Positions 35,674 through 60,417 of a stretch of DNA of 64,000 bases are shown here, piece after piece (within the stretch, counting starts at the first letter, position 1; every line of letters starts with the position of its first letter). Below the pieces are notes generated by a model, which saw nothing but the letters and a program-made list of their open reading frames with translations, was not told where the DNA came from and did not search any database. Source of the stretch: Lytechinus pictus (lineage: Eukaryota); assembly GCF_037042905.1 (NCBI RefSeq), contig NC_087245.1, positions 23,376,001 to 23,440,000 on the forward strand, given 5' to 3'. Both the position numbers and the translations under genes were made by a program.

Positions 35674-35770
35674 CATTATATAAGGCCGAATTTGCAATGC
35701 CTCCTACAACTGCAACACCAATACCAATACTTCCTAGCCTGGAGAAAAGTTGATTCAAACCTGCTGCCAT
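35674..35770 (-). CDS. PHB1: Prohibitin 1, coding exon 1
   Basis: MAAGLNQLFSRLGSIGIGVAVVGGIANSALYN; phase-1 donor G|GTGAG; six exons total 828 nt = 275 aa plus stop. Confidence 0.95.
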
Positions 35771-37060: not shown

Positions 37061-37795
37061 TATGAGATGGTGATGATAATGAGATTGATCAGAATTTGGA
37101 CAGGCCAATATTAGGCAGCGGCCCAACGCAACGCGGGGTCAAACTTATTTAGGGTATTTGTTTTTTTTTCCAAATAAAGCTTTTTTTTTTAAGAAGAAAG
37201 AGTTCAAAAGAAAGGGAAAACAAAAACTGGACTGCAGACTGTCGGAAAAATCATAACTGTCGGGCACACGGCCGGGCTGTTCCAACTGATTCGGTTTTTT
37301 ATTTCCACCATCTTTGTCGGTAAATGTCAATTAAACTGTACACTTATCGGTAAATTGTGATTTTTACGCAATGCGACTTTTAGAGCTCTCTGTACCGATA
37401 GTGAGGACGGACTTCGCGCTCGCATAATTTATTAAGGAAGATATACCCATCCTACTCATAATTAAGTGCACAAAATTAATATATCGTTTTTAGGTTAAGA
37501 TTTTCAAAAAAAAATTCGGCTCGCGCTTCGCGCTCGCAATTATAATGTTTATATTATTTTAGTGTAAATTGTTAGGCACGTGTCAGTGAAAGTGAAGACT
37601 CTTTTGGGGGTGGGGCTTGTCAAAATTTTTGTAAACAAAAATGTCCCCCTTGAAAATCCTGGATCTGCCCCTGGGTTGGATATAAATTGAGTTTTCAGTC
37701 TAATCAAAGTCATTTAACACTATTTTTCAGGTCATTAAAACCTCTGAAATGTCCCATACGTAACGCGCGAGAATTCTTGGACTTGCCCATTTCCA

Positions 37796-38565
37796 CACTG
37801 TAAAAAATGAAGTGCTAATTTTGCACTTACAGTGTATAGTGACTGCACTACGAGTGCCGATTTTGTAGTTCAAATTTAAAGGACAAGTCCACCCCAACAA
37901 AAAGTTGATTTGAAAAAAAGGAGAAAAATCCAACAAGCAAAACACTGAAAATTTCATCAAAATCGGATGTAAAATAAGAAAGTTATGACAATTTAAAGTT
38001 TCGCTTAATTTCACAAAACAGTTATATGCACATCCTGGTCGGTATGCAAATTGGCATACTGATGATGTCACCCACTCACTATTTATTATGTATTTTATTA
38101 TATGAAATATGAAATATTCTAATTTTCTCCTCCTTGTCAAGTGCAACAAAGTTTTATTTCTCCCTGAACATGTGGAATTACCATTATTTTAACAGTTTAT
38201 GGTGAAGTTAAGTTGGTCCGTATTGTCAAATCTGTAAAAATTGAAATATTGTATTATTCAAACAATAAAAAACAAAAGAAATAGTGAGTGATGTACATCA
38301 TTGACTCTCTCATTTGCATATTGCTGAGTTGTGCATTTCACTGTTTTGTGAAAAATAAGCGAAACTTAAAAATGTCATAACTTTCTTATTTTACGACCGA
38401 TTTCGATGAAATTTGCAGCGTTATGTTTGTTTGATTTTTCTCTATCGATTCAAATCAACAATTTTCTGGGGTGGATTTGACCTTTAAGCTAGAAAATCAG
38501 CACTCGTAGTGCAGTCACTATACAAGCACTGTAAGTGCTAAATTAGCACATCATTTTTTACAGTG
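37796..38565. mobile_element. CACTA/EnSpm-like palindromic MITE interrupted by a nested element
   Basis: ~70-bp TIRs starting CACTGTAAAAAATGA; 2-bp TSD CA. Confidence 0.8.
37880..38483. mobile_element. Kolobok-like MITE nested in the CACTA-like MITE
   Basis: AGG(A/T)CAA(G/A)TCCACCCCA TIRs; TTAA at 37876-37879 and 38484-38487. Confidence 0.85.
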
Positions 38566-38644
38566 CATCTCCTCATTATTGCCGTGCTCAGTTTCTCCAG
38601 TCATTGAGAAATGTCTTACCATACATTATTCTTTTTCCTTCGTC

Positions 38645-38689
<45 letters not shown>

Positions 38690-38825
38690 GGGGGGGGGGA
38701 AAGAAGCCCCACCCCGATCTGTACACCACTATAGAGGTGGATATCCATCTCGACGGTACAAACATAATTATTACAAAGTAGAAAATTAGACCCGAGGAAC
38801 GATTTGTGAAATACGTGTGTGTGTG

Positions 38826-38980
38826 CAGGGGCCGCGGAACGGTTTTCAAAGTGGGGGGGGGGGGGGCTGACCATGCAAAAAATCACAATCATATGGTAAT
38901 TTTTACGTTTTTGTACACGGTTTTGGAAAAAAGTGGGGGGGGGCTGAAGCCCCCCCCCCCCCCCGCTTCCGCGGCCCCTG
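38826..38980. mobile_element. Short CAGGGGCC-TIR MITE, copy 3
   Basis: 14-bp perfect TIR CAGGGGCCGCGGAA; flanks share GTGTG. Confidence 0.8.
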
Positions 38981-39249
38981 GTGTGTGAGAGGGGAGGGGG
39001 GTTGGTATTAATTGATTTTGGATGAAATACTTAAATAAAAAAACATGTTGAAAAGAATGTAGGCCTATACATATAACAATTCTATGGTTATTTACGTTTA
39101 AGACGTTTACAATAAAACGGAAATGATCAGCAGGAGCTCCCAGCGCCCCCAAGTTTCCGCGGCTGACAATGTGGTACTAAGCATTTTTTTCTTTGCATCA
39201 GGAATGATCCATGCATTCTCCCAGTCCATGCATGATCATTGGTAAGCAT

Positions 39250-39915
39250 AATAACCAGTGGCGGCGCCAGACCACGATAGGCTTATGTTGATAGGGGGTA
39301 GTGGGTACCGTCATTTATTTTGTTTTCCTCAATAAAACGATAGCTAGGTATTCTATATATTTTCGTTCGTAATCACACCCCCCTCGTTTTTACCGTTCTT
39401 ATCATTCTCTATATTTCACCCACTCCTCCCCTGCAGATTTCCTCATCTCTTCCAATATCCTATCATAAACTGAGCCCCCCCCCCCCCCATTTCTCTCTCT
39501 GTATCTCTCCTCTGCTCATGGCCAGACACATTGCCTCCCATCTCCTTCAACCTTTTTGCCGATTGAAACCTATTATATCACCCACGCAGATCTTTGGGAC
39601 ATGCCGTATATAACCACCAGAGGCGGCGCCATCACGATGGGCATATTTTGATAAAAGGAGGGCGTAAAAGGTGCCGGGTACTGTCTTGAACTTTGTATTC
39701 ATCAATAATTATACGGATATTTTATATACTCTTTCGTTCTTTATTTTTTCCTCGTTTCTCATGTTCTTAACTCCACCCCATTTCTCTCTCGATCTGTATT
39801 CTTCATCTGCTCATTATTGGGCATACACATTTTTTTTCTTTTTGCCCTATCCATATCACTTCCAATTCCCTCGCTCTTCTCTTTGAACCTCATTTTTGCC
39901 GATTGAAAACCATAT
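39250..39915. repeat. Diverged ~360-bp direct tandem duplication
   Basis: ATAACCA..GGCGGCGCCA..CACGAT at ~39251 and ~39610; TTTTGCCGATTGAAA at ~39554 and ~39894. Confidence 0.65.
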
Positions 39916-40614
39916 CGCAAGTAATAATAGAGCCTACCCTTTTTACCAACTCTTTTTCTTCTTGGGGACTTACAAGTTGGTGTGTTCTGTGAATAGATTT
40001 ATAAATTTTTCATGGATTGTAGAGTAGGTTCACATTACGAAAATTCTGAGTAACAGTAAGACTTTTTGATGCCTTACAGTAACAGCGGGACTTTTAGATG
40101 AAACCACTAAGCTCAGGCTAACAGTGAACGTCTTTTTGCTTAACTTGTTGCTTTTGGTTTCAACAATATCAGTCTTATAAACTTGAATGTAGATTTGATT
40201 TCTCAAATTGGTTTTGTGTCTTTCAAATGCAATACTCCAGACATTACAAGCAAGACATCACGATGAACTTGAAAACATATATACGCAAATTCGGGTTTTA
40301 TGTATCTTCGACGAATACTTGAAAAAATATACCATTTGCGACCTATTGGGGTTATATTAATTTCAAAACGTAATAGGTCTTGCTTGTAAGTCGATCTCTC
40401 AATTTCAAAGCACCCACTACATTTAAAACCTCACTACTTTAATGAAAGAAACGTACAAACCATTGTAATTATAGCATATTTTATAGCGAATGTTGTCAAC
40501 GTTCAAATAATATAATCTCGAGGTAGTAAAAGAAAATCCTGAAAGAATAAGATGCACGGGGCACCCGTAAGTGATAATGCAATTTAAGTTCTTTGAAATG
40601 CCTTAATTGCCCCA

Positions 40615-40734
40615 TTTTTTATAAGTGTAATTTATTTTCAATATAAAAACAAATGTACATTATGTTACAAAAATGATATACACAAATACACAAATGAAAT
40701 CCGCTTGGAGCAAATTTGCTGAAGAGATGACAAT
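40615..40734 (-). other. Putative non-coding last exon (3' UTR) of metallothionein
   Basis: Pyrimidine tract plus CTGCAG acceptor at 40735; AATAAA at 40636-40631; pairs with donor AG|GTGAGT at 41264. Confidence 0.6.
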
Positions 40735-41293
40735 CTGCAGATAAAGAGAATACAAAGAGAAGAGAAAAAATATTTTAAGCCATGTTTATAATACATGAAG
40801 ATATTTATTGTTTGTATCCTATGCCTAGCCTGAATGAAAATTTTCACGACTAATGAAACGGAACATGTCAACGGCACGAGTCTATATTACATGGAATCAT
40901 ATAGTAACTAAAGGAAATGAAACCTTTAATTGGAACAAGTGGGTTTGTGTGAAAACAGAAAATTCAAAGAATATGATCAAAGGTTTGAGAAAAATCGGAG
41001 AAACATTGAGAAAATTACGATCACTAATATTATGGAGATCCTCCGTTAGTAATGCGACAAAGATGTGTGAGGTCACATGTGAACAACCTTCCCTTTGAAG
41101 GTTTTTCAAAATATTCAAATATTCTGTCCGGCAAATTGTCGGATCTTACAACTTTCCTCGATTTTGATTGGCTGAGAACTTGTCGGAAACGTCTATGTCC
41201 TTTTATGGAACGCTCCCCAGGTCTGTTTCAGATTCTAATTAAACACACTCGTATGATCACTCACCTTCCTAACGGAAAGAAAATGGTCTTGAC

Positions 41294-41370
41294 CTAGCAC
41301 GTACAGTTCCCCATAGTACAGGCACAGGCACCTTCACATTTGCAGCCATCGGCACACTTACATGCAGCAT
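41294..41370 (-). CDS. MT: Metallothionein, coding exon 3
   Basis: (N)AACKCADGCKCEGACACTMGNCTC*; acceptor TTTCAG| in phase 1. Confidence 0.95.
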
Positions 41371-41969
41371 CTGAAAAAAGGGTAAAAAAAAATCACTTTA
41401 GATGAATACCATCGCTTGGAGAAGTCTCTGATAATGAAAATGCAGTTAATGCAACACATAGCTGTCAGCATGAAAACGATCATCTATATCGTACATATCC
41501 AAAAAGAAAGTGAATTTTCGGGGTATAAAAGTAACTTTCAAGAGTAGCATTCTATGACAACTGATCAAATATTTTTTTGTCACATCCTGGTAATATAAAA
41601 AAAAACACATGCCGGTGACCAATAATTTTATGCCACTCTTTATTATTTGCCCTTTAATTAAAAAAAAAAAAAAAAAAATAGGACCAGCACAGAACGGGTT
41701 CCGAGACGCATCTTCTATATAACCAAACAAACGGTCATATCCTACATTAATGGTTTCCAAATCCGTATTCGTAATATTATATTTTCAATTATGGATATAT
41801 GTCGGTATGTTTAATTAACAGTTAGGACATAATGTTGGCCTATTAAACTAGAATTAATTTAGCTAGGTTTGTTCAATTATTCAGTATAACAATGTATAGG
41901 CCTGTACTTTGCTTAGAGTGAATTCAATAGCAGGATTTATTGATAGGTCGAATTTGATTGGCGACTCAC

Positions 41970-42062
41970 TTGAACATTTTCCACAGCAAGTTCCATCTCC
42001 TTCCTGACAGCACTTTCCTGTGATGCAGCACTCTCCACCCCCGCAGGCACACTGTTTGCCAT
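41970..42062 (-). CDS. MT: Metallothionein, coding exon 2
   Basis: (D)GKQCACGGGECCITGKCCQEGDGTCCGKCS; 93 nt, phase 1/1. Confidence 0.95.
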
Positions 42063-42785
42063 CTGGAATAAAAAAAGAAGTTTAACATAATATAAGTGTC
42101 ACTGGTGTGGAAGTAAAATATATTTTTAAAATCTTATTTTCAGACAAATAAAGCAAAGTATGATAACATTCGTTATCCAATTGTTTACATATCAGATATA
42201 AGCTCGGCGGAGCATATAAAGCGAAAATTCACAACTTCGAATATGAACACTACTTTGAAACATTGAAATCATATTGATAATCAAAATTATAAACTTCCCC
42301 GTGAAAGGGGTGCAAAAAGGACAATATGCATGGGCGACGCCATATTTCCAATAACCCTTTTCGTATTCTTATCTCTTTCTATCCATACTTTCTCATCTCA
42401 TTTTCTTTTTTCTATTCCCCGCTAATATAATAGCATCAATAATAACAATCTATATAGGGACACACACACTCCTTCTCCCCGTGGTATCACCTATGGTTAT
42501 ACAACAACGGAATTTGTCCCAATGTCACAATTGGCCTTGGAGAATTGTATGTGCCCCATGGAAAGGTGGCATTCTCCTTCAGATTAAAAAAAATTGCCGA
42601 ATGCAGACATATTATATTTAGGTAATATCTACCACTTGGCGCAGGGCAACATCAAACGCGTCGGGAGATGCGGCACGCGTGCTCAGATTAACCCTCGATC
42701 ACCACCGTCCCACCGTGGCGCCATTTCAGCATGTTCAATACAAGTACATATATAGTTGTTTTATAGACTAGCTGAAATATCTTAC

Positions 42786-42822
42786 CTTGGCAACAGAAAC
42801 ACTTAACGTCAGGTCCAGGCAT
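42786..42822 (-). CDS. MT: Metallothionein, coding exon 1
   Basis: MPGPDVKCFCCQ then G|GTAAG; spliced product 68 aa with 20 Cys. Confidence 0.95.
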
Positions 42823-42925
42823 CGTGATGGTGTATCGAAACTGGCGATTCTAAGAATAATTAACAAGTCGTTCGTAGGTGCAGGTTTCAGCAAGCAGAAT
42901 GATGAAGACTGGCTTTCCGAGTGGG

Positions 42926-43166
42926 TTTTATGTCTTTTCATCAAGTTCCGTGTGCAAATCCTTCCTAAATTGTTATCAAATTATGTGCACCCGGCCCAGT
43001 TAAGCCTTGGCCTTTGGGGTGTGGTCAAGGATCGACGAGTGCTTAAATTTGCACACGTTATTCTTTTTTTACCATCGAAATGGGGGCGTTTTTGTTTGGA
43101 AATTCAACAGTAGTCTTTTGCACGCCGCATCTTTCAGGGCGGAGGGTGGAGGGGGGGGGGGGGGGG
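42926..43166 (-). promoter_or_regulatory. Metallothionein proximal promoter with four MREs
   Basis: CATAAAA TATA variant 42932-42926; TGCRCNC at 42950-42956 (-), 42986-42992, 43050-43056, 43119-43125 (+); poly-G tract to 43166. Confidence 0.85.
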
Positions 43167-45199
43167 CTATAGGCGGATGCATGGTCCGCAATGTATACGT
43201 ACCCCAGCGATTAACCGTAAATTCACTAGCCCTGATCATGCTGATCGACGATAAGTTGGTTTGATAAAAACAGAAAGAAAATATTTTGGGACATTTGATT
43301 TTCATGAAAACCCAACAAAAAATAACGAGCTTAATTTTTTCCCCATTTTGTGACATCCCCGGTGTGCTTGCATGGTACGTATATCGTGTGATATATTTTT
43401 TCAAAATGTTTTTTTTTTCAAGAAATTGAAAGTTTTCTTATTTCAGCATTCGATATAATTATCATCAGATGTATCAGTTTAATGCATTCAATAAAAAGAA
43501 AAAAAGTATTTCAATCATCATATTTCAATTAAAGAGGAGCTGTTCGCAAATGATATTTTAAATTCGAATATGTAAATCTTCAAACTCTCGTATGCTTTGA
43601 TGGATCCATGAGCATCAACAAACAGGGAACGAGGGAAATATATGTCCTCTCGTGGGGGGGGGGGGGGGTCATGATCTAATTTGTCCCCCACTTTTGAAAA
43701 TTCGCTAAATATTATTGCTCTGCTCCTTGCAAGAAAAACAAGTGTGAAGTAGGCAAGGTTAACCATGCAAATGTGCACCAAATTGCATTATTTCAAGCAC
43801 GATGCAAAATGTTCTCGATGGGTGCCCCGATTATGGCCCTGGGAAGCGGGGTTGCTGTGTGTGTTATTCACCATAGGCATGCACCACCTCCTGGAAAATC
43901 AGGTAGGTATATGCTATAAAGTAGACATTTAATCCAAATCGTATTCATTTTTAGTGGAAACCTTTTTTTTAATTGTCAAATTTGTTCCTTTATAAGGTCA
44001 CTCTAACTTTGGAGTGAAAAGCTTTTCTTTTCTTTTGCTTGTCAAATATTTATTAAAAAAAATGCAGCTCCGGCCCTGTTAAAAATCGTAACGGTGTCCC
44101 TGTTCCTCCAACCCCACCCCCCCCCTTCGGCCCCGCTTCGCGTGCTTGGGTTCGGGCACTCCATTCTTTCGCCAATTTCAGTGGGTTTTATCAGTGAATA
44201 AATTATACGAGTTGTAGTTTATATCGAAAATTTTCCGTTCTGTTTGAACATTTTAGTCATTTTCATATGTTATCATTAATGCAAAAATATTTGTTTATTA
44301 ATGTATAAGCATTGCCTAGATAATGATTCGGAATTTGAATTTATCTACATGTGAATAATTTTTGATATTGATTCTGTTTTCATTAGGTCACTAATGAAAA
44401 ACAGCTTTTTGCTGATCTTTTGTACCTGACTAAATATATTTTAATAAATAATCAAATAAATGAATGAAATATAGGTCCCCCAATGGCTCGCTTCGCGAGC
44501 TCGTGCACTTCGTTCTCTCGCTAAATTGTCAAATTTCATAACTGTGTGCCATATGATGGATCTTTAAGACATATAGTTATCTCTATTTTATTTTCTTGTT
44601 AATCTGTAAAGAAAGCGTGGATATAAAGAAAATTACGACCTCTAGCTGTATTGCTTATTTTAAAACGAACTATGAATTAAGTAACCGATCCGAATATATA
44701 CTTGCTGAAATATGGGGGGGGGGGGGGCGAACGGGTTGATGTCACATCCAGTAACGTAATATATCAATTAAAATCGGAGGAGTTGCCTTTAACCGTTTTC
44801 GAAAAACACATCACCTGTTTTGATACATATATGTGCATGACTTCTTCTATTTTTATTTTGTATATATTCTATCGGATGTTGTTTACGATACACTAACACC
44901 TCTGCTGTTACACAATAATGTACATAATTATGCGTAATATATAGGAATACTTTGTGTTTTTGTTGTTGGTCAACCGGCGAGAGAACTTTCTGTATAGGAA
45001 CAATTTTCATTTTGGCTACCCCTTGCCAAATAAAATAAAATCAATTAATACATACATAAATAAATGAATGAATAAATGAATAAATAATCGACCCTCATAT
45101 ACAACTGATTGAAGAATAAAAGGTGAATCAATTTCTAAGTTTAAGTGCAAAATAACTTGTCTGATTAGGCCTCTTTAAAAAGAAGAAATATCAAAATAC

Positions 45200-47030
45200 C
45201 CTATGCAGCAATTTATTTGGCAGGAGTTTGCACTCGTCTTTCGACTTCCAGAGTAAAGGTTTGATGACCTATCCTATTCTGATTTGCTTAATTATAGAAT
45301 ACCCTGTATATTAAACAAAGCACGAAAACAAACCTACGAATAGAGCAGAGTGAAGAATTTAGAATATGTCTTTTCTGTATTGCGTAACATCGGGGTAACA
45401 TCTTCCGATTAGCAGTTTCAGTATAGCAACAGTTTTGCCCTCATCTTTGCGATCGTCTATGCACTCGACCGACTGCCAGAGCGAAGGTACAGGGACCCCA
45501 GCATTGTTATGGTTCTCTGAATGTCCAAATGCCCTATGTATATATTATAAACAATTCACGAAAGCAAAGAAAAGAGCAGAGCGAACTTTTTTAGAATATA
45601 TATTTTTTCTGTATTATGTAATTTATCTTCCGATCAGCTTTTATTAAGCAACAGTTTTGCACTCTTTAATTTGCGATCGTCTTTGCACTCGATTGCCAGA
45701 GCAAAGGTCCAGGGACCTCAGCATTCTCTGAATATTAATTCACGGAAACGAGCAGAGCGAATTTTGTTAGAAGATCTTTTCTGTATTACGTAACACACTT
45801 ATCTTCTTATCAACTTGTCTTTGGCAATATAGTTTTGCACCCGTCTTTGCGCTCGTTTTTTTCCCTTAATTGGCAAACTTTATAGGTCCATGCTATTTTC
45901 CCATCGCATTGTTTTCTGAATTAATGTCTAAATGCCCTTTTAAACAATTCACGAAAACAAACGTATGAAAAGAGCAGAGTAAGGAATTAAGAATATATAT
46001 TATTCTGTATTACGTAACATTATCTTTTAATCAACCTGTCTTTTGGCAATATTGCACTCTTCTTGTCTTTGCACTCGGACTGTCCAATGTTCTCACTGTT
46101 CTGCCTTTCTCAATCTCTCATAATGCACTGCATGGAAAAACACATCTACCTTACGGCAGAGTGACGTAGCATTTACCTTATTGCATTTCATTTATGAGAC
46201 GATCATTTTTTTTCATTATTTTCATTTTTGTTGATGTTTATTATTGCACCATTCATTTATTTATCTATTTATTTATTATATTCATTTTATTATTTTTTTT
46301 TTGGGGGGGGGGGTATAGTTCGCAGTTTTGCGTTCGTCTTCGCACTCGACCGCTGGAGTCATCAAAATTAAGTCTATTGGCCATTAATTGTCTTGATTTA
46401 TTGTACATGTTGTAACCCCCCCCCCCCGCAAAAAAAAACGAAAAAAAATAAAAGATAATTCTTTATAGAGCAGAGTGAGGATTTTTTTTTCAATTATTGT
46501 TTGTGTAACCCCGCGTGTGTAACATAATATTTTATCTTCCGTTCAGCTTTTTTGGCAAGTATATATATAGTTTTGCATTCGTCTTTGCGCTCGTCTTTGC
46601 ATCGACTGCCAACTTGACCAAAGGCCCAGCAAAGGTCGTTTTGGTTTTCTAGATGTGTAAATGCCCTTTGTATGTAAAAAAAAATATGAAAACAAACCTG
46701 TGAAAAGAGCAGAATGAAGAATTCAGAGTATGTATTTTCTGCTTGCGTAACTTATCTTCCGATCAGCTTTTAATTCTTTATCAACACTTTTGCACTCGTC
46801 TTTGCACTATACAGCCAGAGCAAAGGTCCAGCTAGGGACTCCTTTAATTGTTGTGGTTTTCTGAATGCCTTTGTATATAAACAATTCACGAAAACAAACC
46901 TATAAAGATCAAGATCGAGTGATTCGAAGAATTACGTAATATATTATCTTTTGATCAACTTGTCTTTGGTAATAGTTTTTGCACTCGGTCTTTATAATTG
47001 CGCTCGCCTGTGCACTTGACTGCCAGAGTA
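45200..47030 (+). repeat. Degenerate ~200-bp tandem repeat array (about 8 units) containing 12 MRE consensus sites
   Basis: Recurring AAACAATTCACGAAAAC..AGAGCAGAG..CTGTATTACGTAAC..TTTTGCACTCGTCTTTGCGCTCG..GACTGCCAGAGCAAAGGT; a further partial unit near 47500-47700. Confidence 0.85.
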
Positions 47031-47712
47031 GATCCGTGGACGGGGGGGGGGGGGGGGGGGGGGACTCAAGCATGGTTTCTATGGATGTGCTAGCTGCCCG
47101 GCTGCCCGATATAGATCCTCTTTCAACCCCGGCTTTCACGTTTGCCTATATAATCATATCATTTTTTTTTCATTGACCGACCGTTCTCCCCCGTTCCTGC
47201 ATCGAAGCCCCTCCTTTCAGGCGTCGATCAGCTAGATCTCAATTATAGACCCCCCCCCCCCGCACAATCCCCGAGCACCCACATTATTTTGCAGAGAGCG
47301 ATCGTGTTCTAAAGCCTCCCTGGTTTTCATAGCAACTCCAGTTTTAGTAAATGGTATAGGCCTATATGGTGTTAGATTAGGGGCAGCAAACCCTAGCTAT
47401 TACCCTTTCCAAATCTGAGTGCCCCCCCCCCCGGCACCCGGCAGGTATCCTAGTATAGTTCAATAGCCATAGCAAATAAGATCAGGCCGGAACCCCATTG
47501 TTTTGGTCTTCTGAATATTTAAATGCATTACGGATATATATACAAAGGAGCAAACCTGTATCATTAGAGCTGAGTGAAATATATACAGAATATATATTTT
47601 CTCTATTGCGTAACACAACCAGGTCAGCTTTTTTTTTGGGGGGGTGGGCAATACTTTACATTTTTTTCTTAATGAGCACTCGACCGCCAGAACACGGAGA
47701 TCCAGTAACCCC

Positions 47713-47743
<31 letters not shown>

Positions 47744-47902
47744 GGGGGGGGGGGGGGGTTGAGCCCTATGTACGGGTGTATATGGTGAGGGCTTCAGTCG
47801 GAGAGTAAATTGGTGGTGCAAAATATCCGGTTCTGAACCGCGAGCCGATGCAAGTTAATCGCGTTTACACGCTATGAAAAAGCCGATGCAAAAGCCGATT
47901 AA

Positions 47903-48475
47903 AGGGATGGTCCGGGCTGAAAGTATTTATAGCTTAATAAATAGAATAAAATTCACTGAGCAAAATGCCGAAAATTTCATCAAAACCGGATAACAAATTA
48001 CAAAGTTATTGAATTTTAAAGTTAAGCAATATTTTGTGAAAACAGTCGTCATGAATATTCATTAGGTGGGCTGATGATGTCACATCTCCACTTGTTCTTT
48101 TGTATTTTATTATATGAATTTAGGTTTATTCAAATTTTTTCCTCCAAGAACTAGAAAAATTGGATTGACAACTGATTTAGTGCATTAGATATTTATTGCT
48201 GCAACTTATTTCATTATAAGGGAGACATATTATTCACACAAGTATGAAATAATGAAAAAAATATGATTTTATGTAATAACATAAGAAAACGGAAAGTGGA
48301 GATGTGACATCATCATCCCACCTAATGAATATTCATGACGACTGTTTTCACAAAAAATTGCTAAACTTTAAACTTCAATAACTTTATTATTTGTTATCCA
48401 ATTTTGATGAAATTTTGCTCAGTGAATTCTACTCTATGTATTAAGATATAAATATTTTCAGCCCGGACCATCCCT
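47903..48475. mobile_element. Kolobok-like MITE, copy B (inverted relative to copy A)
   Basis: Perfect AGGGATGGTCCGGGCTGAAA TIRs; TTAA on both flanks. Confidence 0.88.
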
Positions 48476-49319
48476 TTAAGTGTAAACACGGGAATGCCTC
48501 CAACGCGCACCCCGTGATGATCGAGCGATGATTTGGTCTTTGAAAAAAAGAATTACTCTTTCAAATAAGTAAATTTCTGATTTTTTACTTATTGAAGACG
48601 AAATTGCTGTTTTAGTTATTTACAGAAAACCTTCCCTGGCGAGCTAGCTTACCGTTGGTTTTCGGATGGCTGGATAGGCCATGCAGAGTCTCGATCATTT
48701 CACTTTTTTTTAAGAGCTTGTACGTGACAAAAATAACATTCGTCATTCAGAGGTAAAACTTTTTCTGGGAGGCTAATCGTATTTTTTTTCCTTAACAATT
48801 AAAGCAGCAGCCTCTGTGAAGAAATCGTTCACAGGCTCCTGTCCCATAGCGGACAAGTCCTGGATCCATTCCTGATTGAGTATGGGTTTTTTTTCGGTCG
48901 AGCCAAACACAGACACAAATACAGATGGGAGAGGGGCTTGGGACATACGCTTGCCCCCCCCCCCCCATGCAAACAAACACCAAATAACGACCAAGAAAAA
49001 CAAAAGGGAAAGGAAAAGAGAAGGGGGAAATAGGCGATATTATATTCTGAATAATATATTTCGAAATCTATCACAAAATTTGATTTTTAAATAAAATTGT
49101 CAAATGTTTTGCTCGGTCGCTTCGCTCGCTAGCAACTTTTGAAAATTTTACCAATTACGCCTGTAGCCGCTTAAATATTTGGTACATTACGCCACTGAAG
49201 CCAATGAGACATTTCATTCCCCCATTCACAATTCAATACGCCCGATTGACTATGATCATGATGATAAAACATAATATCCAAATGAATATTAAACATATAC
49301 TTGCGCCTATATAAGCTTG

Positions 49320-49660
49320 CCCCCCGGAGGGGGGGGGGGGCAGTCAAATATGGTTTTGAAAGACTGGTCAATGGTCAATCGCGGGGTCAAACGTATTTAG
49401 GGTATTTTTTTTCCAAAGCTTTTTTTTATAGATTAGCTAAACGTGTTCGGGATATGTGTTTTCCCCAAACTTTTCCCCGGGGTCATATTCTGGCGACTTT
49501 TTTAGGGGCCAAAATGTGTAAATAAAGCCCGCGAAAAACTTGTTTAGGGGGTTGTTTTGCACACAGAGAAAAAACTCGTTTAGGGTGTGTTTAGAAATAA
49601 TTTGGTCACGCATGTGTACAGCAATACATTTGACTGCCCCCCCCCCCCCGGGGGGGGGGG
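49320..49660. mobile_element. MITE with CCCGG-poly(G)-CAGTCAAAT TIRs
   Basis: Inverted termini; interior shared with fragment at ~37133-37200. Confidence 0.65.
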
Positions 49661-49771
49661 GGGGTTAAGTCCATCGATACAGTTACTGGAAGAAGAGGTC
49701 TTAGTTAAAACATTGGTCTCAAGATTGTTCCAGTTACAAAGAATCTTCAAGATGAATATAGGATTATACAT

Positions 49772-50585
49772 GAAGAGCTCACTTGCAAAAGGGGTTAGGT
49801 CCATTTTTTAGCAAATTTGATTTTTATGTCTTAATGTATAGATTTTTAGCTCTATAAGATGATACCAAATAAAAGTTGAAATTCTCATTAAAGAGTGAAC
49901 TAAAATGGAAAAGAAAAATCACTTTTTTTCAAAAGGGGTTAGGTCCATTTCATTTTGGTTACAAAAGGGGTTAGGTCCACACAGATTTTTTGGAAAAGAA
50001 TATCTTAAAAAATGTGGAGACATGTAGATTTTTTTTATACCCAAGTTTATGTTCTCATGATAAGGTATCATAAAAAATCAATTTCGCATAAGAATATTGC
50101 AGTATGGGAGAATTAAAAAAATATTTTCTTGCAGTGGACCTAACCCCTTTTGCAACCAAACTCTTCTGAAGATTTCATTTGTCAAAACCGGTTAGGTCTA
50201 TTTTTCATAAATTTTATTGTTTTCTTTCTCTAAACCTCTACATTTTTAGTCGCTCTGATGATACCAAAGAAAATTTGAAATTCAAATGAAAACGTGAATG
50301 AAAGTGGCAAAGAAAAATCACTTTTTTAATCAAAAGAGACAAGATTCATTCCAGTTTGCTTGCAAAAGGGGTTAGGTCCACAATATTTTTTTTTGAAAAT
50401 ATAAAGAAAAAAATTGAAGACAGGTAGATTTCTTTTTATACCCAATTTTGTGTTCACATGATATGGTAGTACATCATGACAATTTAGTTTCTCATAAGAA
50501 TATTGCAGTAAGTGAGAATAAAAAAACACATTTTTTCTCGGAATGGTCCAAAGTAGACCTAACCCCTGTTGTAACTAAACTCTTC
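49772..50585. mobile_element. Dimeric TIR element (two ~400-bp units) with 4-bp TSD
   Basis: GAAGAG...CTCTTC termini with AGGGGTTAGGTCC subterminal repeats; units 49772-50166 and 50168-50585; TSD ACAT. Confidence 0.7.
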
Positions 50586-52791
50586 ACATGTAGGCCCTAT
50601 GTATCAAACTTGCCGAAATTGGACAGCTGATTGTGAGACTGCATTATGGTGACAACTCTCCCATTCTTTGATACTATGATAGATAGGCCTTTGGTTATCA
50701 GAAAGTTGTGGTTTTCCCTTATTAAGCAATTTTCCCGGGGATGTAGGCAAAAATGAACTATAGCACATTTGTACAAATGTACATCCCAATTATATCATTC
50801 TAAGTAGATCGTAAATCCCCATAGGTAGTCATTTCAACTTCATATTTATGACTTTCTCATTGCTAGTCACTTTTGTTCAAACTTTCATTGATTTTCTCTG
50901 ATTATTTTGGTTGCTTTTGTAAAAAAAAACCAAATATGCTTGCTAGGGTAGCATTTGCCACAATCTTCAACTTCAGTTTACTCAGTCTATTGATATTTTA
51001 AGCTATATTGATTACACAAAAATAAGCCTGTTTTTAATTTGAGACTATTTATATTCCATGTTTTAAAGGAGTTAAACTGCATTGATATGGGAACAAGAGA
51101 ACATAACACAAACTTTCATTCACATTGTACATATACTAGTACACCAACAAAATTTAATTTTGCAAAACAAATACTGCAGATGTGATTCAGACAAACTAAA
51201 GAGGGCGCACATAAAAGCTACAAGTTTATAAACACACAATTTTATTGCATGATATCAAAATATTACAGCTACTGCTGAATTATAATATTTACAAATGATT
51301 TTATCATGATAATCACAAACAACATACATTCTGCAACACTGGGAGAATAGGCAAGCTGGTACATTAAATGTTCCTCTACGAACAGAAGGATCTACATGGA
51401 ACATTTGGAAAACAGTAATTGCATAAAATCTTTATATATACTCCAACTAAACAATGTTGCATAAAAAATCATGATGTAACTATGATGCAGTGCAAAAGGA
51501 GTGTTTAATAGTTAATACATAAATATGCATTGAAAGACATCATTGGTTTCAGCAGGGAAGTGGGAGCTTGAATTCCCTCTTCCTTGGTTTAAGTAGTACA
51601 GAGTAATGAGTTAAGATTATGGATAGTTTTATTCTAGGAAATGAATAATTCAAATTTGAATCTGAATTGGAGTAATAGAAATGAAACTCAAGATCAACTG
51701 TATAAATTTTACAAGTAAATTTGCTTTTTGAAAACTACGGTATGTAGTTTTTATACTATTAATTTAATTACAAAACCTCACATGAAATATGAACAAGGAG
51801 CATATGAACTCATTTATCTGAGTCCATTCTCATTCCACAATTTGACTGTATGATTTGTTTATTAAAGACGTCACGGTTACACAGTGCTTCTTATTAACCA
51901 CATGACATAAGAATACATATGGTCCTATTAAAGTATTTCAAAGTTTACCACATGTTCCTTGAATGAACATATATGACTATTAATACATACAATTTTTTGA
52001 TTTATGACACTTATATAAAAATAACCTGAGTACTATTTCTCTACATTTCTTCAAATTGTATTGATTGATTTGAGAAGAGTATAAAAAATAGGAGAATCAC
52101 ATAAACATCTAAATTACAAGTGAGGAAACTATGATTGAGTTATATTCCATTTTCAAAGAAGATTAAAGATTTTCATGTCATAAATGTCCTGGTTTCAGTC
52201 TAACTATGTTCATATCATATGCAACCTCAACACAGGATAGTGTTAACTGATTAATTCACAAATACATAAACTGATGATAGTTGAATAAAGATTCATTCTT
52301 ATTTTGTATATTTTCAGAGACATTATATATAGACTCACAATTAAAATATTTGAATTCATTAATGTGTTTAATCTAATAATCCTGATATAAAACACTTTTC
52401 CTGTATGGAAAACAATCATAACAGTATTTTATGGAAATGTGACAACAAAAATTATGGGAAAGATCAGCCAATAAATAATTAAACTAGAGGAAGAGGGTTT
52501 ATGGCAATTCTGAATGAGAAAACGATCAACATGTTCAGTAAAAACCAATTACGTTGATATTAACTGAATCTCCAAATCCTTGGATTTGAAGGGATTTATT
52601 TGAAAAGGAATCATGCAACGATAATTGGTATTAATGCATGCATTTTTTCATTTTTAAAAACAGTTTTAATCTGTGAAAAATTTCTTCTGAATATATTTCT
52701 ATAGTAAATGACCATCATGAGCAGGAGAATGAAATTATTGGAATAAATAATTCAAGTGATAGGAAAGACACATTTTCTACCATTAAATAGT

Positions 52792-53448
52792 AACAAGTGG
52801 AATGCCTCTGGCCGTGTCACCTGCATCACACGATTCAATATAGCAGCAGTGCTGATTTTGAAAACTACTATAACTCGCACAAGATGTTCAGTGATACTTG
52901 GTTACTCTAATTTCCACGTGTTATGAACTAGACCAATACACTTAGGGATATGATGGCAATTCAACAAATACCCCCAACGTGGCCAAAGTTCTTTGACCTT
53001 ACATGACCTTTGACCTTGATCATGTGACCTGAAACTCGCACAGGATGTTCAGTGATACTTGATTAGTCTTATGTCCAAGTTTCAAGAGTCAGATCCATCA
53101 ACTTTCAAAGTTATGATGGTAATTCAATAGATTACCCCCATTATGGCCAAAGTTCATTGACCTTTGACCTTGGTCATGTGACCTAAAATGTGCACAGGAT
53201 GTTCAGTGATACTTGATTACTCTTACGTCCAAGTTTTATGAACTAGACCAACACACTTTCAAATTTATGGCTGTAATTCAACAAATACCCCAATTTGGCC
53301 AAAGTTCATTGACCCTAAATGACCTTTGACCTTGGTCATGTGACATGAAAGTCACGCATGATGTTCAGTAATACTTGATTAACCTTATGGCCAAGTTTCA
53401 TGAAAAGCGGCGCCTATAGTCTCACTCTGCTATGCAGGTGAGACATAA
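52792..53448. mobile_element. Helentron/HINE-like non-autonomous element with internal ~130-150-bp tandem repeats
   Basis: Subterminal IRs 52814-52826 and 53432-53444 (12/13), terminal hairpin GTCTCAC...GTGAGAC, four GATGTTCAGT(G/A)ATACTTG units; relatives at ~28035-28335 and ~28790-28945. Confidence 0.6.
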
Positions 53449-54216
53449 AGGAAGGCAAGGTACCAGACAAGCTAACAAACTTGAAAAATGTTGGTCACAG
53501 GATAAGTTATACCTATGTTGAATTACCTTAAAACACCCCCCCCCCCCAAAAAAAAAAAAATGGTGATTGTTTGCGGCCATTCATAGTTCTAACAATAAGC
53601 ATTATATTAGAAAGTCAAAAGGGGCCTAAGCTTTCGATCCTAGCAGAATTTTCTTCGGAGGCAAAATGAGCATTATACATGTACATGTACATGTATTACA
53701 GACAGGGTCAATTCCCAAGACAATGATCAATTCCCTATTCAACATTATGACTATAGCATGTTTCTCTTATTCAAAAACATGAGAAAGTCTTATTTGGCAA
53801 AGATCAAAAGTGATACTAGATATAAAGCAAATCATTCTTGTGCTTTGAGCATAATAACCTAAAATCAAAGAAGCGGGATAAGTTATTTCCAGCAAAATGA
53901 ATATAAATAAATGGGTGGTATTCTCAGAATCAAAGGTAAACAGATACAGATATGGAATTTAACGCAAATATATACCTGGTAACGAGACAAACGATCTTTA
54001 CTTCTGAAAACTGGATATACATGTTATCTTTCTTCAGTTTTTCTTTAAAAAAATAGCTTCATCCGGCTTGCCAAGGAAGTGAAGGTTGCCCATTAACTTA
54101 ACAGTGATTATTTACTTTCAATTAGAACACCATCAATTGACTATATAGTATGACCATCGAATACCATATTGATATTGATACCATTGAATGTGGGTGAACA
54201 AAGCAAGTGGAAAATG

Positions 54217-54361
54217 TCAAGACATTGCTGCTTCATAAGGTCTTTCACCAAGTAGCTTTTCTCTCTGAATGCAGTCTGTGACCCAGTCTGAGGTTACTAC
54301 ATGTTGCTTCAAGGCTCGCTGCTGACCTCGTTGACGGAACTCCCTCACTCTGCTCAAGTCA
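54217..54361 (-). CDS. LIG4: DNA ligase IV, last coding exon (end of BRCT2)
   Basis: DLSRV...HVVTSDWVTDCI...ERPYEAAMS*; phase-2 acceptor. Confidence 0.9.
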
Positions 54362-54553
54362 CTGAAAAAAATGAAATTGAGCTTGATTTGATTTATGAAG
54401 AGAGCCACCTGTTTGTGACTAAACACACCACTCGTGACCCTTTCTTGATTTAAATGGTATATCTTTGGGTAGCTGGCTTAGCACCTGAGAACATGTTCCA
54501 GTGTGTTTTGTGTGTAACTGTATGAATGGCTCTATGAAACACCACCATGTAAT

Positions 54554-54800
54554 GCCCCTCTTGTGTTGGCTCAGTTGGTAGAGCGTCCGTCTCACAACCG
54601 GGAGGTAGGGTTCAAACCCCTGCCGCGTCAGACCAAAGATGTTAAAAGATAGTAGTTGCTGCTACCCTGTTTGGTGTTCAACGATTAAAGGGATAGAGCC
54701 ACGATCTGGCGCTGCACAGCAGCTGCCCGGTCCACGATCAATTGGGCAAAGCAAATTTTTGGAGTATTTCATTTCATGTCTATTGCAACAATAAAATATG
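54554..54800 (+). mobile_element. tRNA-derived SINE in LIG4 last intron
   Basis: A box TGGCTCAGTTGG 54567-54578, B box GGTTCAAACC 54609-54618, ~170-nt non-tRNA body ending AATAAAA. Confidence 0.8.
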
Positions 54801-55357
54801 GATGGGGATTCTGGATTAAGCTCGTCAATCACTTTAGGAGAGAACAACAGACATTTGTTACTATCTGACATGGCGCCTACACATTCAAAATTCAAAGTGG
54901 ATGATTTCTTTTTTAGTATATATTTAGAATGTTTATTTTGCTAGATGGGAGTGAAGGAAATACTTGATCTTCAGGAAAAAAAGAACCTGATAACTGAAAA
55001 GACAATACTGTTAAATCAGCTACACGTTGCCACAAATAGAAATAAGCCAATTACTCTTTGTACAACCAGTTCCCAAGCCCTGTGTTAAAAAAACTCTGAT
55101 TCAGATCAATTTTATATCAATATTGATCTAAATTCTTATCCCTTAATCTCAGAATGAGTTTGATTCTATTTCATCACAATTCTCCGTAAGATTTCCCCAT
55201 TGAATTATATCAATAAAAAGAAAACAGAAAAGTGGCTGGAAACTGACAAGATGTTAGATGAAAATATTTTCAAAATCTCACTACCATGAAATTACAAGTT
55301 TTATTCCCTAACTACTATGGCATTATGATATAGACTGTTACAAGGGGTAAATCATAC

Positions 55358-55467
55358 CTCTTGTCAACGATGATGTGGGTGACATGCCTGTCTAGTGTAG
55401 GACATATGGTGGCGCCATGGAATCTCATTTCCAATGATATAAGGTCTAGAGAGCAATCTTTGATGTG
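55358..55467 (-). CDS. LIG4: DNA ligase IV exon (BRCT2)
   Basis: HIKDCSLDLISLEMRFHGATICPTLDRHVTHIIVDK; 110 nt, phase 0/2. Confidence 0.9.
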
Positions 55468-56224
55468 CTACAAGTCAAAGAAGACACAGGTCAAACAATA
55501 TTTATTTTCAAGTGTCTTAAACAGAATATCTGTTAAATGATAACTTCCCTGATAAAATTGTAACATCTTTTTTTAACCTATTCCTTTTTTGTAGTAATAA
55601 ACTAATGAATAAAACACTTTATTTTAATAAATATATTTAACATAATCAATCTGCATGATAATCTTTTCTGCAACAGCTAGTAAATAACTTCATTCATTTG
55701 CATCATAACCATATTCCTAAGTTTTTGCCTCTGTGATTTTTTTTAAATAAATATTAAAGCTATCAATGTCATTCCAGATTGTGATGAATCTTCAAGTTTC
55801 TATAGCAATCAAGCATTCAAATGACCCAACCTTTCGTTTCCTTGTGGAATTCACCTAAAATATTAAACTCACAAGCAGGGATGGATTCAAGGCATGTACT
55901 TCTGAGTAACAAGGCCACCTGAGAAAACCTTCTCCAATAGACTTTGAACACATGAATCAGGCCGAGGTCAAGCCCAAGGTCAGAAAGATGTGACCTTGAG
56001 GTTGAGGCCGGCCTCGACTACATCCCTTACCACAAGATACTATAAATGACAAACATTTTGCACAGTTTCTGACAAAACTTTAATGAATAATTCATTTTTT
56101 ATTTAAATACACCATAATCATTGAAAAATCTCATTCAAGAATATGTGTATAACTTAAAATGAGCATGAAATTCTAAACTTTTATAGAATGAAATGTCTCT
56201 GTTTTTAGATATGAATAATTTGGT

Positions 56225-56596
56225 GGATTCACAATATGGTGCGCCATCTATTGGTTGTAGCGGACAAGCCAAATTTCTAACTTCGGGGTCGACATCGCGT
56301 GCAGGCTCAGGTAGAACTCAGTGTGTGATGCTTCAAAAATGAAAAATATCTGGCAAAAGCGGAGGAAGAATTCACCAAAAACGGTCTACATTTGCAAAGA
56401 AATATGCGGCAAATTTCTCTCCCTCCTCCTAAACCCTAGTAACAGCATATGCAAGCCGGTCAATCCACATCGGCCAGGGCAGCATAATCGCATGCATGCA
56501 CTAGCACGCCAAAGATGTCAAATTTTTTCCCATGATGCATTTGCAAATTTGGCCTGTCCGTTGCAGCCGATAGATGGCGCACCGTATTGTGAACCT
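56225..56596. mobile_element. MITE with ~50-bp imperfect TIRs in LIG4 intron
   Basis: TTCACAATA(T/C)GGTGCGCCATCTA...GCCAAATTT inverted at both ends; TSD unclear. Confidence 0.75.
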
Positions 56597-56697
56597 TACA
56601 AATCATAAGAACTTTCAATTTATATAAACTGATATATAATGAATATATTACATAATTTGAAACATATCCTGGATGTTCTACATGCATGCATACTTAC

Positions 56698-56835
56698 AGT
56701 ATCCTCTTCACCAATCACAAGACATGAATCCATGTAGACACGGCATAGACGAAACAGGCCAAGATGAGAATCTTGAGGAAAGTAGTCCATCTCTATCTCA
56801 GCTATCTCTTCAGCAGTCATCGGTTTCTTACTCTT
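56698..56835 (-). CDS. LIG4: DNA ligase IV exon (linker to BRCT2)
   Basis: KSKKPMTAEEIAEIEMDYF...GLFRLCRVYMD...EEDT; 138 nt, phase 0/0. Confidence 0.9.
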
Positions 56836-58060
56836 CTGTTAAAAAAATATAAATAATTGATTATGTTTGTCTACTTTAATCAGAGGTTTAACCATAGGTA
56901 ATAATGTTCCAGCGACATAACAGATATGATCCAATTGTCAAACTGAAATAGGCTGGTTCAATAAGATATTCAAATTCATGGAAGTTTCTTTCCCAGGAAC
57001 GTATTTGAGGTATTCATTCACCATGTGAATAAAAAGAAACAAGTATATGTACTTCGAATTCAATTTGCATACATCACCTGTTGTTATCGTATGTTAAGCA
57101 TCTGGCAAGCTTTCTTTTGAATAACAACTTTTGCTTGCAAAGCATGCACAACATTTGAATATGTTTAAGTCTATTACAGTTAGGTAGCATAGCCAATACT
57201 AATTATGTACAAAAAATATAATCATTTGTAAACATTGACTGTATCTCCGCATGTTACACCATAATACAATGTATATCATTATCCACTAACTATTCTCATC
57301 ACTGTATTGAAACTCGGCTCAAAACATTAACATAAAAGGGCAATTCCATTTTAATGTACATCTGACTCCCTACGTGGGATCTTCATGAAATTATTCATCT
57401 CTGATTTTACTTCATGTGAAAAGGTCTAATGCCCTCAATAAAATAATCCTGGCTTGAGTAGTTTATGAGGTGAAGTAAAAATATAAATAAACTGGGGACA
57501 GACGCTTTATGGCACTGCTCTAATGCACTAGTAATTCAAAAGCTTGATGGAAATGATTATCCTCTCCAGAATATTGTTAGTTACCCCCTGCTTGTTCATG
57601 TAAAACAGGCAGGGTGTAACAATTTTATCTCTTATCCTTATATTATTGCAGAATAAGGGAAATTCATAGAATAGAACCAAAAAAAAAAAAAAAAAACTAA
57701 ATTTTGTGAGTAAATCATGAAAGGGAAAATCACAATGATCACAGTAAAAAGAATGTGCATTTTTCCAATGAAATTGATGCAAATAGTAGTACACATGCAG
57801 CGCCAATCTTGAATATGCACGTAATATGCTCTCGTATTACATAGTTGAAATCGGCACTGGGCATGCGCGTAGCAATGAAAACAATGTTAAAACCGCAAAA
57901 GATGAACATCAAACAGGTGATACAGGCTCATATTACCCATTCAATATTTTTTGACAAAGTAAATTAAGTAAATATGGGTTTATCTCACAAACAAATTGAC
58001 CAATCAGATTACAGAATTCATGAAAAAAATGTCTCACTAAGAGATAAGTATTTAACTCAC

Positions 58061-58222
58061 CTTCTTATCCACATTTGCAAAGATCTCCTTGAGTTTCTTT
58101 TCATTTACATCCTCTGTATAGCTGTCTCCATGACTGTCATAATCCAAGGCAAAGTGGGCCGCCATCTTTGCAGACGTATACAGCATGTGCGATGGTAACC
58201 ATGGCAACAAACGACCAGCATC
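58061..58222 (-). CDS. LIG4: DNA ligase IV exon (XRCC4-interacting region)
   Basis: LLPWLPSHML...FALDYDSHGDSYTEDV..KLKEIF; 162 nt, phase 0/0. Confidence 0.92.
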
Positions 58223-59190
58223 CTATGTAAGTCCACGAGAATGGAATCAATGATTTATAAAGGAGGATAGTCGTTGGTTCACGTTTAGCTCATCTGTCAT
58301 GTGACATTGAGACCTTATAATCACAATGCGATACCGGTATGCACTTTACAAGAACTATTTATTTTCATTATGTCTTTTTCATCCTGCTTGGTGTCCTGAA
58401 ACCCTCCTCACTAGTGGGATGCGATTTCGAATTGTCAACACATCCAAGGAGTATTAAATTAAGGAAGCCATGATGATATTTCCCACATTCCTGGTACATA
58501 CTGTATGGTAAGGTCCCCTAAGTCTGTGCAGGGCTCCTTGTCAGCGCGTACACGTATCTGTGCGATTCTAGCAAAAGAAGATATGCGACAACCACAGACT
58601 TTACACATGCAATGCATAGAAAGATATTCATTAAAAAATCTGACTCAAAATGGTAGAAAATCAATGATTTTCGGGCATTTCATGTGACGGCCTCAAAATG
58701 CTGCCTTTTCCATCAAAATCCCCAAAACGTGTGTAAAGTGAATGGTTGCGCAGACATGGGGCACCATTGCTTTGTTCAATCTGAAAATGACTGGCCGAGG
58801 TTTTTTCCAATAAAATCATATATTTTTCTTAAATTTTCATGAGATTTCTCGGCACACTTACTCATAAGAATATATGGAACATTCTCAACTGATTTTTTTT
58901 TTTAATGGGAAAAATCATGATTAATATTAATCTAAATTGTTGGGTGGGCAGACATGGGGCCACCCTTCATACATGCAAACAGCCAAACTCCAATGCAATG
59001 TGCATAGTTTAATTCATCATCAAATATAAACACTCACAAAAAGTCTTAAAACATCAAATAAAAGAATATTTTGGTCATTTTCCTTACATTTTCCCACATC
59101 TTCCAGATTTTTGTTGGTGCTTCAGCACCCTCAGCACCCCCGTTTCCCAGGGCCATGTTACAATTAAGTAAATACAATCAAATTGCTTAC

Positions 59191-59239
59191 CATACATTCA
59201 ATGAACCATGTAGTCTTTACAACATCATAGATCTTGGCA
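59191..59239 (-). CDS. LIG4: DNA ligase IV small exon (end of BRCT1)
   Basis: AKIYDVVKTTWFIECM; 49 nt, phase 2/0, bridges neighbouring exons in frame. Confidence 0.88.
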
Positions 59240-59516
59240 CTGGAAGATATAATATAGATATTCTATCAAATGATGTTTAAAGGCCAAGTCTACCGTGACA
59301 GCTAGTTGAAGTAGCAAAAACCCAGACGTTTCAATGAAATCCATGTATAGCAACTATGGAAGACAGCTTATGTAAGCTATCTATGCCACTGAAGCAACTG
59401 ACCAACAAATATACATATTCACTAGTAATCAAAATAGAATTTAGGAGATGAACAAAGAAGTAATGAAAAGATACTGCAAACTGGCTTTGCACTTAAGTCT
59501 GCCCTTACAACTCCAG

Positions 59517-59787
59517 GGCCCCGTCTTACAAAGAGTTGCGATTAATCTGATCAATCGCAACTATGGACGGCCAGCAATGTCAACATATAAAATGCATGTT
59601 TGTTCAAAAAAAATTCTAGATATGAATGTATATCCATAAATTCATTGATTTCTTGACAATTTGGTGTGTTCTCCTTTGTTTACAAAGGACATTTTGCAAA
59701 TTTCCTGCAGAAAAAATTATGACAATTATGGATTTCCATAGAGGTACGATTGATTGGATCAATCGCAACTCTTTGTAATACGGGGCC
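59517..59787. mobile_element. Harbinger-like MITE
   Basis: TIR GGCCCCGT(C/A)TTACAAAGAGTTGCGATT; TSD CAG. Confidence 0.85.
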
Positions 59788-59962
59788 CAGGTGCCTGGGA
59801 ATGATTTTCTCAGAGGGGATGCTGGTTTGTTGAGAAAAATTTGGCAAGCAAAAAAATAAGGATTTTCTCCCAAGTTAAGGTGATTTTGGTCAAGAAAAAT
59901 TTGATAAGTATAAGAAGAAAGAAAATAGACAGATTTTGGTGAAGAAAAATTTGACTCCCCAG

Positions 59963-60119
59963 GGGGGCGTTTCATGAAAGGACTTGTCGGACGTTTTATC
60001 CGACAAGTCCCGTTTTATCCGACAGTTACCATAGTAACCGTACCTCTCAGCCAATCAACATCAGAGAAAGATGTCAGATCTGACAACTTGTCGGATGAAA
60101 ATGTTGATGAAACGCTCCC
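59963..60119. mobile_element. Harbinger-like MITE
   Basis: TIR GGG(G/A)GCGTTTCAT; flanks CAG and CTG; related fragments at ~41125-41218 and ~27645-27750. Confidence 0.75.
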
Positions 60120-60238
60120 CTGGGCTATGTAAGGATCTGTCCACTAAACAAGTTAAATGTATCAAATGATTCGATTTTCAGGGGGGGGATTCTAAACAAT
60201 GAAAGTGTTAAGAGAAGTATGATGGAGTTTAAAGTCAC

Positions 60239-60417
60239 CTGAATATGTTTTTGACCTTGAGGTTGACCTTGTCAGCCAGCACACAGTATGTATCTATACC
60301 GGGATTTTGAACCACTACACCTCCACATTCAACCACTTTCTTCTCTAGCTCATGCTTCGGGTAGTTCGCAGGGCTGTTCATGATGCAAAGCTCTCGTCCA
60401 TCAAGCATTTCAGAAGT
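60239..60417 (-). CDS. LIG4: DNA ligase IV exon (BRCT1)
   Basis: SEMLDGRELCIMN...KHELEKKVVECGGVVVQNPGIDTYCVLA...VKNI; 179 nt, phase 0/2. Confidence 0.93.

Follow-up and report, generated by a model that had tools for sequence, protein, structure and literature searches.

A nested tandem array of metal-response elements upstream of a Lytechinus pictus metallothionein gene: an old duplication and a probable auxiliary distal enhancer

Work attributed to Cserjesi (1992, 1997) reportedly showed that the sea-urchin metallothionein (MT) gene LpMT1 carries proximal metal-response elements (MREs), a GC box and a poly(C) tract, as does the promoter described here, and in the SpMTA studies (Bai 1993 among them) distal MRE pairs and intron 1 are said to raise SpMTA induction. 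The LpMT1 fragment of Cserjesi 1997 is said to have been 4 kb long, and may have included part of the array reported below; to our knowledge, no repeat array has been described in the LpMT1 or SpMTA promoter studies. In animal MT genes the MRE core bound by MTF-1 is TGCRCNC (PMC8216474), and a homologous MTF-1 has been invoked for the sea urchin (PMC4768315). In Orchesella cincta, the proximal MREs and C/EBP sites of the MT gene cooperate with a putative distal enhancer some 850 bp upstream, and allelic differences alter Cd induction (PMC1913499). The 270-bp promoter of L. variegatus mtA, on its own, gave 2.6-4.3 units without copper and 7,426-8,092 units with 5 nM copper sulfate, i.e. from about 3.4 to about 7,700 units in three readings each, or ~2,300-fold induction (PMC12521550). 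Finally, neighbouring binding sites can be born by local duplication, at a scale of up to about 50 bp (PMC3188502). These statements hold for the portions of the papers available; the corresponding portions of PMC4101491, PMC6649756, PMC5316978 and PMC3419175 have no direct bearing on the array, and our literature search, beyond the reach of which lie the primary papers on sea-urchin MT promoters, found no account of it.

The locus studied here lies in a 64-kb stretch of Lytechinus pictus DNA, the whole of which was analysed and is called the window below. As in the animal clusters of PMC8216474, there are multiple exact cores upstream of MT, four of them in the proximal promoter; unlike those clusters, as far as the available text describes them, it has 12 further putative cores 2.4-4.2 kb away, in a diverged nested array and in reverse orientation. 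The layout also recalls that of O. cincta, where a proximal MRE cluster is joined by a distal MRE element near C/EBP-type sites, but a repeat array stands here in place of a single distal MRE (PMC1913499). A 270-bp promoter like that of mtA would include all four proximal cores seen here, whereas the mtA construct was without the array, and copper was the sole metal tried in the part of the report available (PMC12521550). Neighbouring sites derived from local copying are a further likeness, although at the second level the copied piece is a ~215-bp multi-site module (compare PMC3188502). What appears to be new is a duplication-built distal MRE array, while MT regulation through proximal and distal MREs was already known. 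We favor the reading that the array is an old two-level MRE duplication that probably works as an auxiliary distal enhancer of MT, and likely as an extra booster of metal induction, not as its main switch. It has the sequence properties of an MRE enhancer, and enhancer function is plausible but unproven.

The MT gene is intact and lies on the minus strand (Table 1) in the four-exon layout of sea-urchin MT genes (PMC5412396). Its product of 68 aa, 20 of them Cys, is 94% identical to Lytechinus pictus MT, its coding introns are GT-AG, and it displays the characters of an echinoid metallothionein: a Cys-rich protein of 64-68 aa, two coding introns in phase 1 and a further, predicted intron in the 3' UTR. 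A Pfam match to PF05522 was obtained for the relative P0001. No second MT gene or MT relic was detected in the 64-kb window, where only the three known coding exons were matched. The gene for DNA ligase IV, which ends 7 kb past the array, presents its 3' end to it, and the MT promoter is therefore the nearest known promoter; the array is linked to an intact MT gene.

Other features of the neighbourhood were recorded as well. Just downstream of MT is an exon at 35673-35770 (-) starting MAAG..., which we presume to resemble a prohibitin first coding exon; a Pfam search with the short frame at this position returned no match. A single-exon rhodopsin-family receptor frame (10952-11971, -), a protein-kinase exon (1889-2227, -) and candidate long frames resembling LINE reverse transcriptase (5751-7829, -) lie farther away. 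Within the surveyed positions 36001-56000, the CpG observed/expected ratio per kb is 0.72-1.16 over 36-50 kb and falls to 0.22-0.44 past 50 kb, as would be expected if the surroundings of MT were free of methylation and the ligase IV gene body and 3' region were methylated. At 0.99 the array is in line with the 36-50 kb region and thus gives no sign of function; CpG retention, being a regional feature, was rejected as a functional sign.

Table 1. Coordinates of array units, of the metallothionein gene with its proximal promoter, and of the neighbouring gene (positions in the window).
Feature	Position	Strand	Details
U0, stub (3' end of unit)	45206..45256	+	one intact core 45229
U1, 228 bp	45257..45484	+	bZIP-like 45380; slots 45434/45446/45458; one intact core 45460
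U2, 220 bp, nearest consensus	45485..45704	+	bZIP-like 45614; GATA-like 45623
U2 triad			cores 45658, 45684 intact; middle slot broken
U3, 176 bp	45705..45880	+	bZIP-like 45786; GATA-like 45799; cores 45836, 45848
U4, 210 bp	45881..46090	+	bZIP-like 46010; GATA-like 46020; cores 46053, 46070
U5, 274 bp, decayed, (ATTT)n expansion	46091..46364	+	two slots, both broken; neither intact core nor bZIP-like site
U6, 256 bp	46365..46620	+	bZIP-like 46501; GATA-like 46532; three slots, only core 46586 intact
U7, 203 bp	46621..46823	+	bZIP-like 46743; GATA-like 46752; two slots, only core 46791 intact
U8, 208 bp	46824..47031	+	bZIP-like 46932; GATA-like 46944; three slots, cores 46980, 46999 intact
U9, detached, full-length, 448 bp past array	47480..47695	+	bZIP-like 47606 kept; no intact core
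MT coding exon 1	42822-42786	-	ATG at 42822
MT coding exon 2	42062-41970	-	
MT exon 3	41265..41370 (coding 41370-41294)	-	stop ends 41294; then predicted 3' UTR intron 41264-40735
MT exon 4, predicted 3' UTR	40631..40734	-	AATAAA signal 40636
MT proximal promoter	42926..43166	-	TATA-like box 42931; GC box 43137-43142; poly-C tract 43151-43166
MT proximal promoter MRE cores, four	42950 (-), 42986 (+), 43050 (+), 43119 (+)		
DNA ligase IV 3' exons	54217..60417	-	gene ends 7 kb past array

To judge from its repeat structure, the array is built on two levels, a 12-bp MRE having been tripled and a ~215-bp module containing the triad having then been multiplied. It is made up of a stub and eight contiguous units (176-274 bp; 45257-47031), with a ninth unit detached from them by a gap of 448 bp. 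An earlier reading of this DNA, made from the sequence only and called the sequence-only reading here, had described about eight diverged ~200-bp units, present nowhere else in the window except for a partial copy near 47.5 kb. Eight contiguous full units were indeed found, to which we add that one is strongly decayed and that a stub precedes them; the unit is likewise absent from the rest of the window, but the supposed partial copy is a unit of full length, aligned to positions 3-220 of the 221 in the profile. The profile was built from eight units, with U9 among the training set, and recovered those eight together with two fragments. It found no further copy in the 64-kb window, the next match outside the array having E=1.2. 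The decayed unit scored 55 against 44 for the best of 200 shuffles, and contains one of the two profile fragments as its end. Tandem Repeats Finder, run on the window, did not report the array.

The consensus unit has at its 3' end three subrepeats of 12 bp, each of them an MRE preceded by TT and followed by G, and the MRE is the sole motif tripled inside the unit. Among 22 triad slots (drawn from 25 rows, with the stray rows 46243, 46738 and 47288 excluded) 12 are intact and 10 broken. One or two cores survive in 7/9 units, and U5 and U9 are without any. The cores that had been seen as pairs 12-26 bp apart are the remains of a triad. A bZIP-like site, TTRYGTAA, lies 5' of the triad in eight of the nine units, as do Fox-like A-rich sites in five; a GATA-like TTATCT is found at a matching position in 6/9 units, a seventh match, in U5, sitting in a microsatellite. 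The names bZIP, GATA and Fox are labels that we assume to fit these short AT-rich motifs.

All 12 core starts given by the sequence-only reading were recovered exactly, as perfect TGCRCNC matches on the + strand between 45200 and 47030 (the 64 kb hold 47 matches). Because MT lies on the minus strand they are in reverse orientation to the gene; the cores are thus co-oriented with one another, as had been noted, with the correction that they point opposite to MT's own direction. They lie 2,407-4,177 bp from the MT ATG, which agrees with the claim of an array upstream of the MT start at roughly this range, and both flanks, TT before and G after, are present in 8/12, in keeping with the statement that most cores have them. 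Shuffled sequence yields 23.9 cores per 64 kb, i.e. ~0.7 per 1,831 bp, and the real window without the array 1.03 per 1,831 bp, with a maximum of 5 in any such stretch. The earlier estimate of less than one chance site per 1.8 kb consequently holds for shuffles and falls slightly short of the real background, and the 12 exact cores stand against about 0.7-1.0 expected. All of them derive from one ancestral 12-mer.

Since repeat copies are not independent, the array was counted as one event when asking whether its link with MT exceeds chance. Such extended flanks may be preferred by MTF-1 in vitro, although a literature search returned no paper on this preference. The exact 10-mer TTTGCRCNCG occurs 10 times in the 64 kb, with eight sites in the array, two in the proximal promoter and none elsewhere, against 0.36 expected, and a count of 10 was matched in 0/100 shuffles. 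When background 12-mers were taken as tandem units, 326/60,838 yielded a core and only 6/60,838 the 10-mer, and no background 220-bp window out of 6,063 had three cores. Two of the four proximal promoter cores have the extended motif of the tripled 12-mer. This one-event count is our strongest argument, and it suggests that the copied module was already an MRE element; its force comes from the pairing of MT with MREs having been fixed in advance. As to where the unit came from, birth from the MT promoter was considered and is unproven. At 43240-43331 (-) the sequence weakly resembles, in inverted orientation, the central part of the array unit with its GATA-like block, and 0/200 and 1/300 shuffles equalled this likeness; however, 42-342 of 2,424 real background windows score equally high, and the likeness is no better than that background. 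Separately, a dispersed CpG-rich motif at 17361, 17487, 17900 (-), 37413 and 37527 (+) is one C-to-T change away from the MRE 10-mer, and is a possible raw source of new MREs via CpG decay; the profile search revealed no homology between it and the array unit beyond the motif.

Alternatively, the unit could be a genome-wide satellite or a repeat internal to some non-autonomous transposon, its MRE match being incidental. Non-autonomous transposons typically contain tandem repeats of 150-250 bp, and the window has another tandem array with a 154-bp unit (52875-53404, 3.3 copies; dispersed partial copy 28150-28266), which we take to resemble the internal repeats of marine-invertebrate non-autonomous elements. 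An (AAAT)n run 120 bp left of the MRE array and the five occurrences in the window of the motif one C-to-T change from the 10-mer point the same way. Yet none of the window's 12 dispersed self-matches involves the array, though other families recur, and there is no second copy in the other ~61 kb, a span that rules out extremely abundant families only. Above that, a tripled promoter-type 10-mer landing beside MT by chance would be very improbable. The flanks of the array (two flank pairs) show no TIR or target-site duplication of at least 11 bp, which old elements could have lost, and a single 10-bp inverted match of a size attainable by chance; Rfam gave no match within the array. From the 64-kb window, we hold the transposon or satellite origin to be decidedly unlikely, and retain the reading of a locally duplicated MRE module. 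In metagenomes, 41 loci match a 20-letter tandem-MRE pattern, and these were taken as chance because 0/41 carry the rest of the unit below E 0.75. A further element of ~580 bp, at 47899-48479 and 36469-37061, has long inverted arms that are 93% complementary and looks like a MITE; its two copies, 90% identical, 11 kb apart and inverted to each other, bracket the MT gene and the array.

How old the array is can be judged from the divergence among its units. On average, pairs of units are 64% identical when eight are compared and 61% when nine are. A star-like tree was obtained for seven units, in which internal branches account for 11.5% of the total length and supports are 32-55; by BIC, a model with gamma rates was no better than one with equal rates (2831.0 vs 2830.6). 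This fits an old duplication burst that would have been followed by independent divergence. The proposal that the array was made by tandem amplification is supported, as tandem duplication. The associated proposal that unit number tunes inducibility is doubtful, given that 61% identity and a star-like tree are not what near-identical copies in turnover would show, and recent copy-number tuning is doubtful for the same reason. A regulatory VNTR would consist of near-identical units able to recombine unequally, which units of 61% identity are not.

Conservation of the cores should be interpreted with some caution. When nine units were simulated neutrally with identity matched, 7.6 intact cores were expected and 11 observed, a number reached in 332/3,000 runs, and the 10-mer was seen 7 times against 4.2 expected (309/3,000). 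Simulations that included gamma site rates and slippage within runs reached the core count in 105/528 cases and the 10-mer count in 88/528. The nine-unit simulations include U5 and U9, and the stub U0 was excluded from every simulation. The sequence-only reading had asked whether cores are better kept than spacers; within the array the comparison gives 11 vs 7.6-8.4, with p 0.11-0.20, a difference short of significance. Among seven array units slot 1 is intact in 5/7 and slots 2 and 3 in 3/7 each, and comparison 7-mers of equal degeneracy have a mean of 2.2-2.3 intact copies.

That core retention falls inside the neutral range, and that U5 and U9 have lost all cores, would be expected of a decaying relic, in which an MRE module was locally tandem-duplicated beside MT and is now drifting, with no measurable effect on MT expression. 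The sufficiency of the proximal promoter in the reporter agrees with such a relic (PMC12521550, the part available). However, the unit is conserved in blocks beyond three neutral models, above all in the bZIP-like site present in 8/9 units, and the origin of a tripled MRE module at this place goes unexplained, except as an element that once worked. The cores are moreover redundant, one or two of three surviving in 7/9 units, and selection on any single core should for this reason be weak; redundancy over three slots and nine units would explain the decay of single cores. We regard the relic as rather unlikely, although it is the alternative to be taken most seriously, and continue to favor an auxiliary enhancer.

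Two lines of evidence concern the blocks. First, 31 consensus 6-mers are kept in at least 6/9 units against 11.7 under neutrality, a level attained in 5/528 simulations with gamma rates and slippage. Secondly, TTRYGTAA is kept in eight of nine units against about 2 under neutrality (0/3,000 simulations); it is the best 8-mer, and once any 8-mer is allowed 19/528 simulations match it. In further nine-unit simulations the corresponding counts were 0/81 and 16/570. The unit as a whole thus seems blockier than neutral models predict, but these tests are suggestive only, since the consensus was used as the ancestor and gene conversion was ignored, both of which favor apparent conservation.

If the blocks are under constraint, the array might be active in a chiefly non-metal capacity, as a tissue or stage enhancer acting through the bZIP-, GATA- and Fox-like sites, its MREs being secondary or an MTF-1 sink. 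These motifs are short and AT-rich, their names are labels, and only the MRE is tripled in the unit; for them it may be said that the bZIP-like site has been retained better than any of the MRE slots, and is still present in the core-less U9. Sea-urchin MT genes are also known to have distinct ectodermal and endodermal patterns, in the portion of PMC5412396 available. Taken together we consider a chiefly non-metal role very unlikely.

The metal-responsive auxiliary enhancer that we favor could work as follows. We infer that metal-activated MTF-1 would bind surviving cores in several units, where a predicted partner factor of bZIP type, and perhaps one of GATA type, may assist it. The array module would then contact the MT promoter and raise or reshape induction with respect to dose, metal, tissue or stage, and would not be required for induction as such. 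The mtA reporter bears on this last point. With a start assumed ~30 bp below the TATA-like box, 270 bp would span the four proximal cores and exclude the array. By inference, mtA is probably the present gene or its ortholog (PMC12521550, seen in part). If mtA is indeed the present gene, its 270-bp promoter suffices, and the array can only modify induction.

Which metal the array would respond to may be written in the sixth position of the core. In Drosophila, copper favors MREs with a purine at this position and cadmium those with a pyrimidine (PMC8216474, citing Sims 2012, in the part available). A pyrimidine is found in 12/12 array cores (11 T, 1 C), in the proximal promoter the bases are A, A, G and C (3/4 purine), and the remaining 31 window cores divide into 15 purine and 16 pyrimidine. 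By analogy, one MT gene might possess two metal-reading modules, a copper-type proximal promoter and a cadmium-type distal array with bZIP and GATA sites to each triad. However, uniformity of pyrimidine-6 was retained in 1,427/3,000 neutral simulations, and as common descent explains it, it represents one observation and not twelve; the two-module reading is speculative and, in our judgment, unlikely. If it were true, the array would supplement a promoter that leans towards copper with a response to cadmium or zinc. An active array would, in any case, make it possible to ask directly if metal preference is set by the sixth MRE base, using a deuterostome embryo in which reporters and knockouts work.

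In conclusion, an active array would be an unusually legible natural record of enhancer building, in which a site was tripled, the module multiplied and the result then pruned, with nine copies to compare. An inactive array would be a warning that motifs can cluster densely within repeats without being under constraint. Sea-urchin MT is widely used as a pollution biomarker, and differences between species in its inducibility could be explained by a distal module of this kind.
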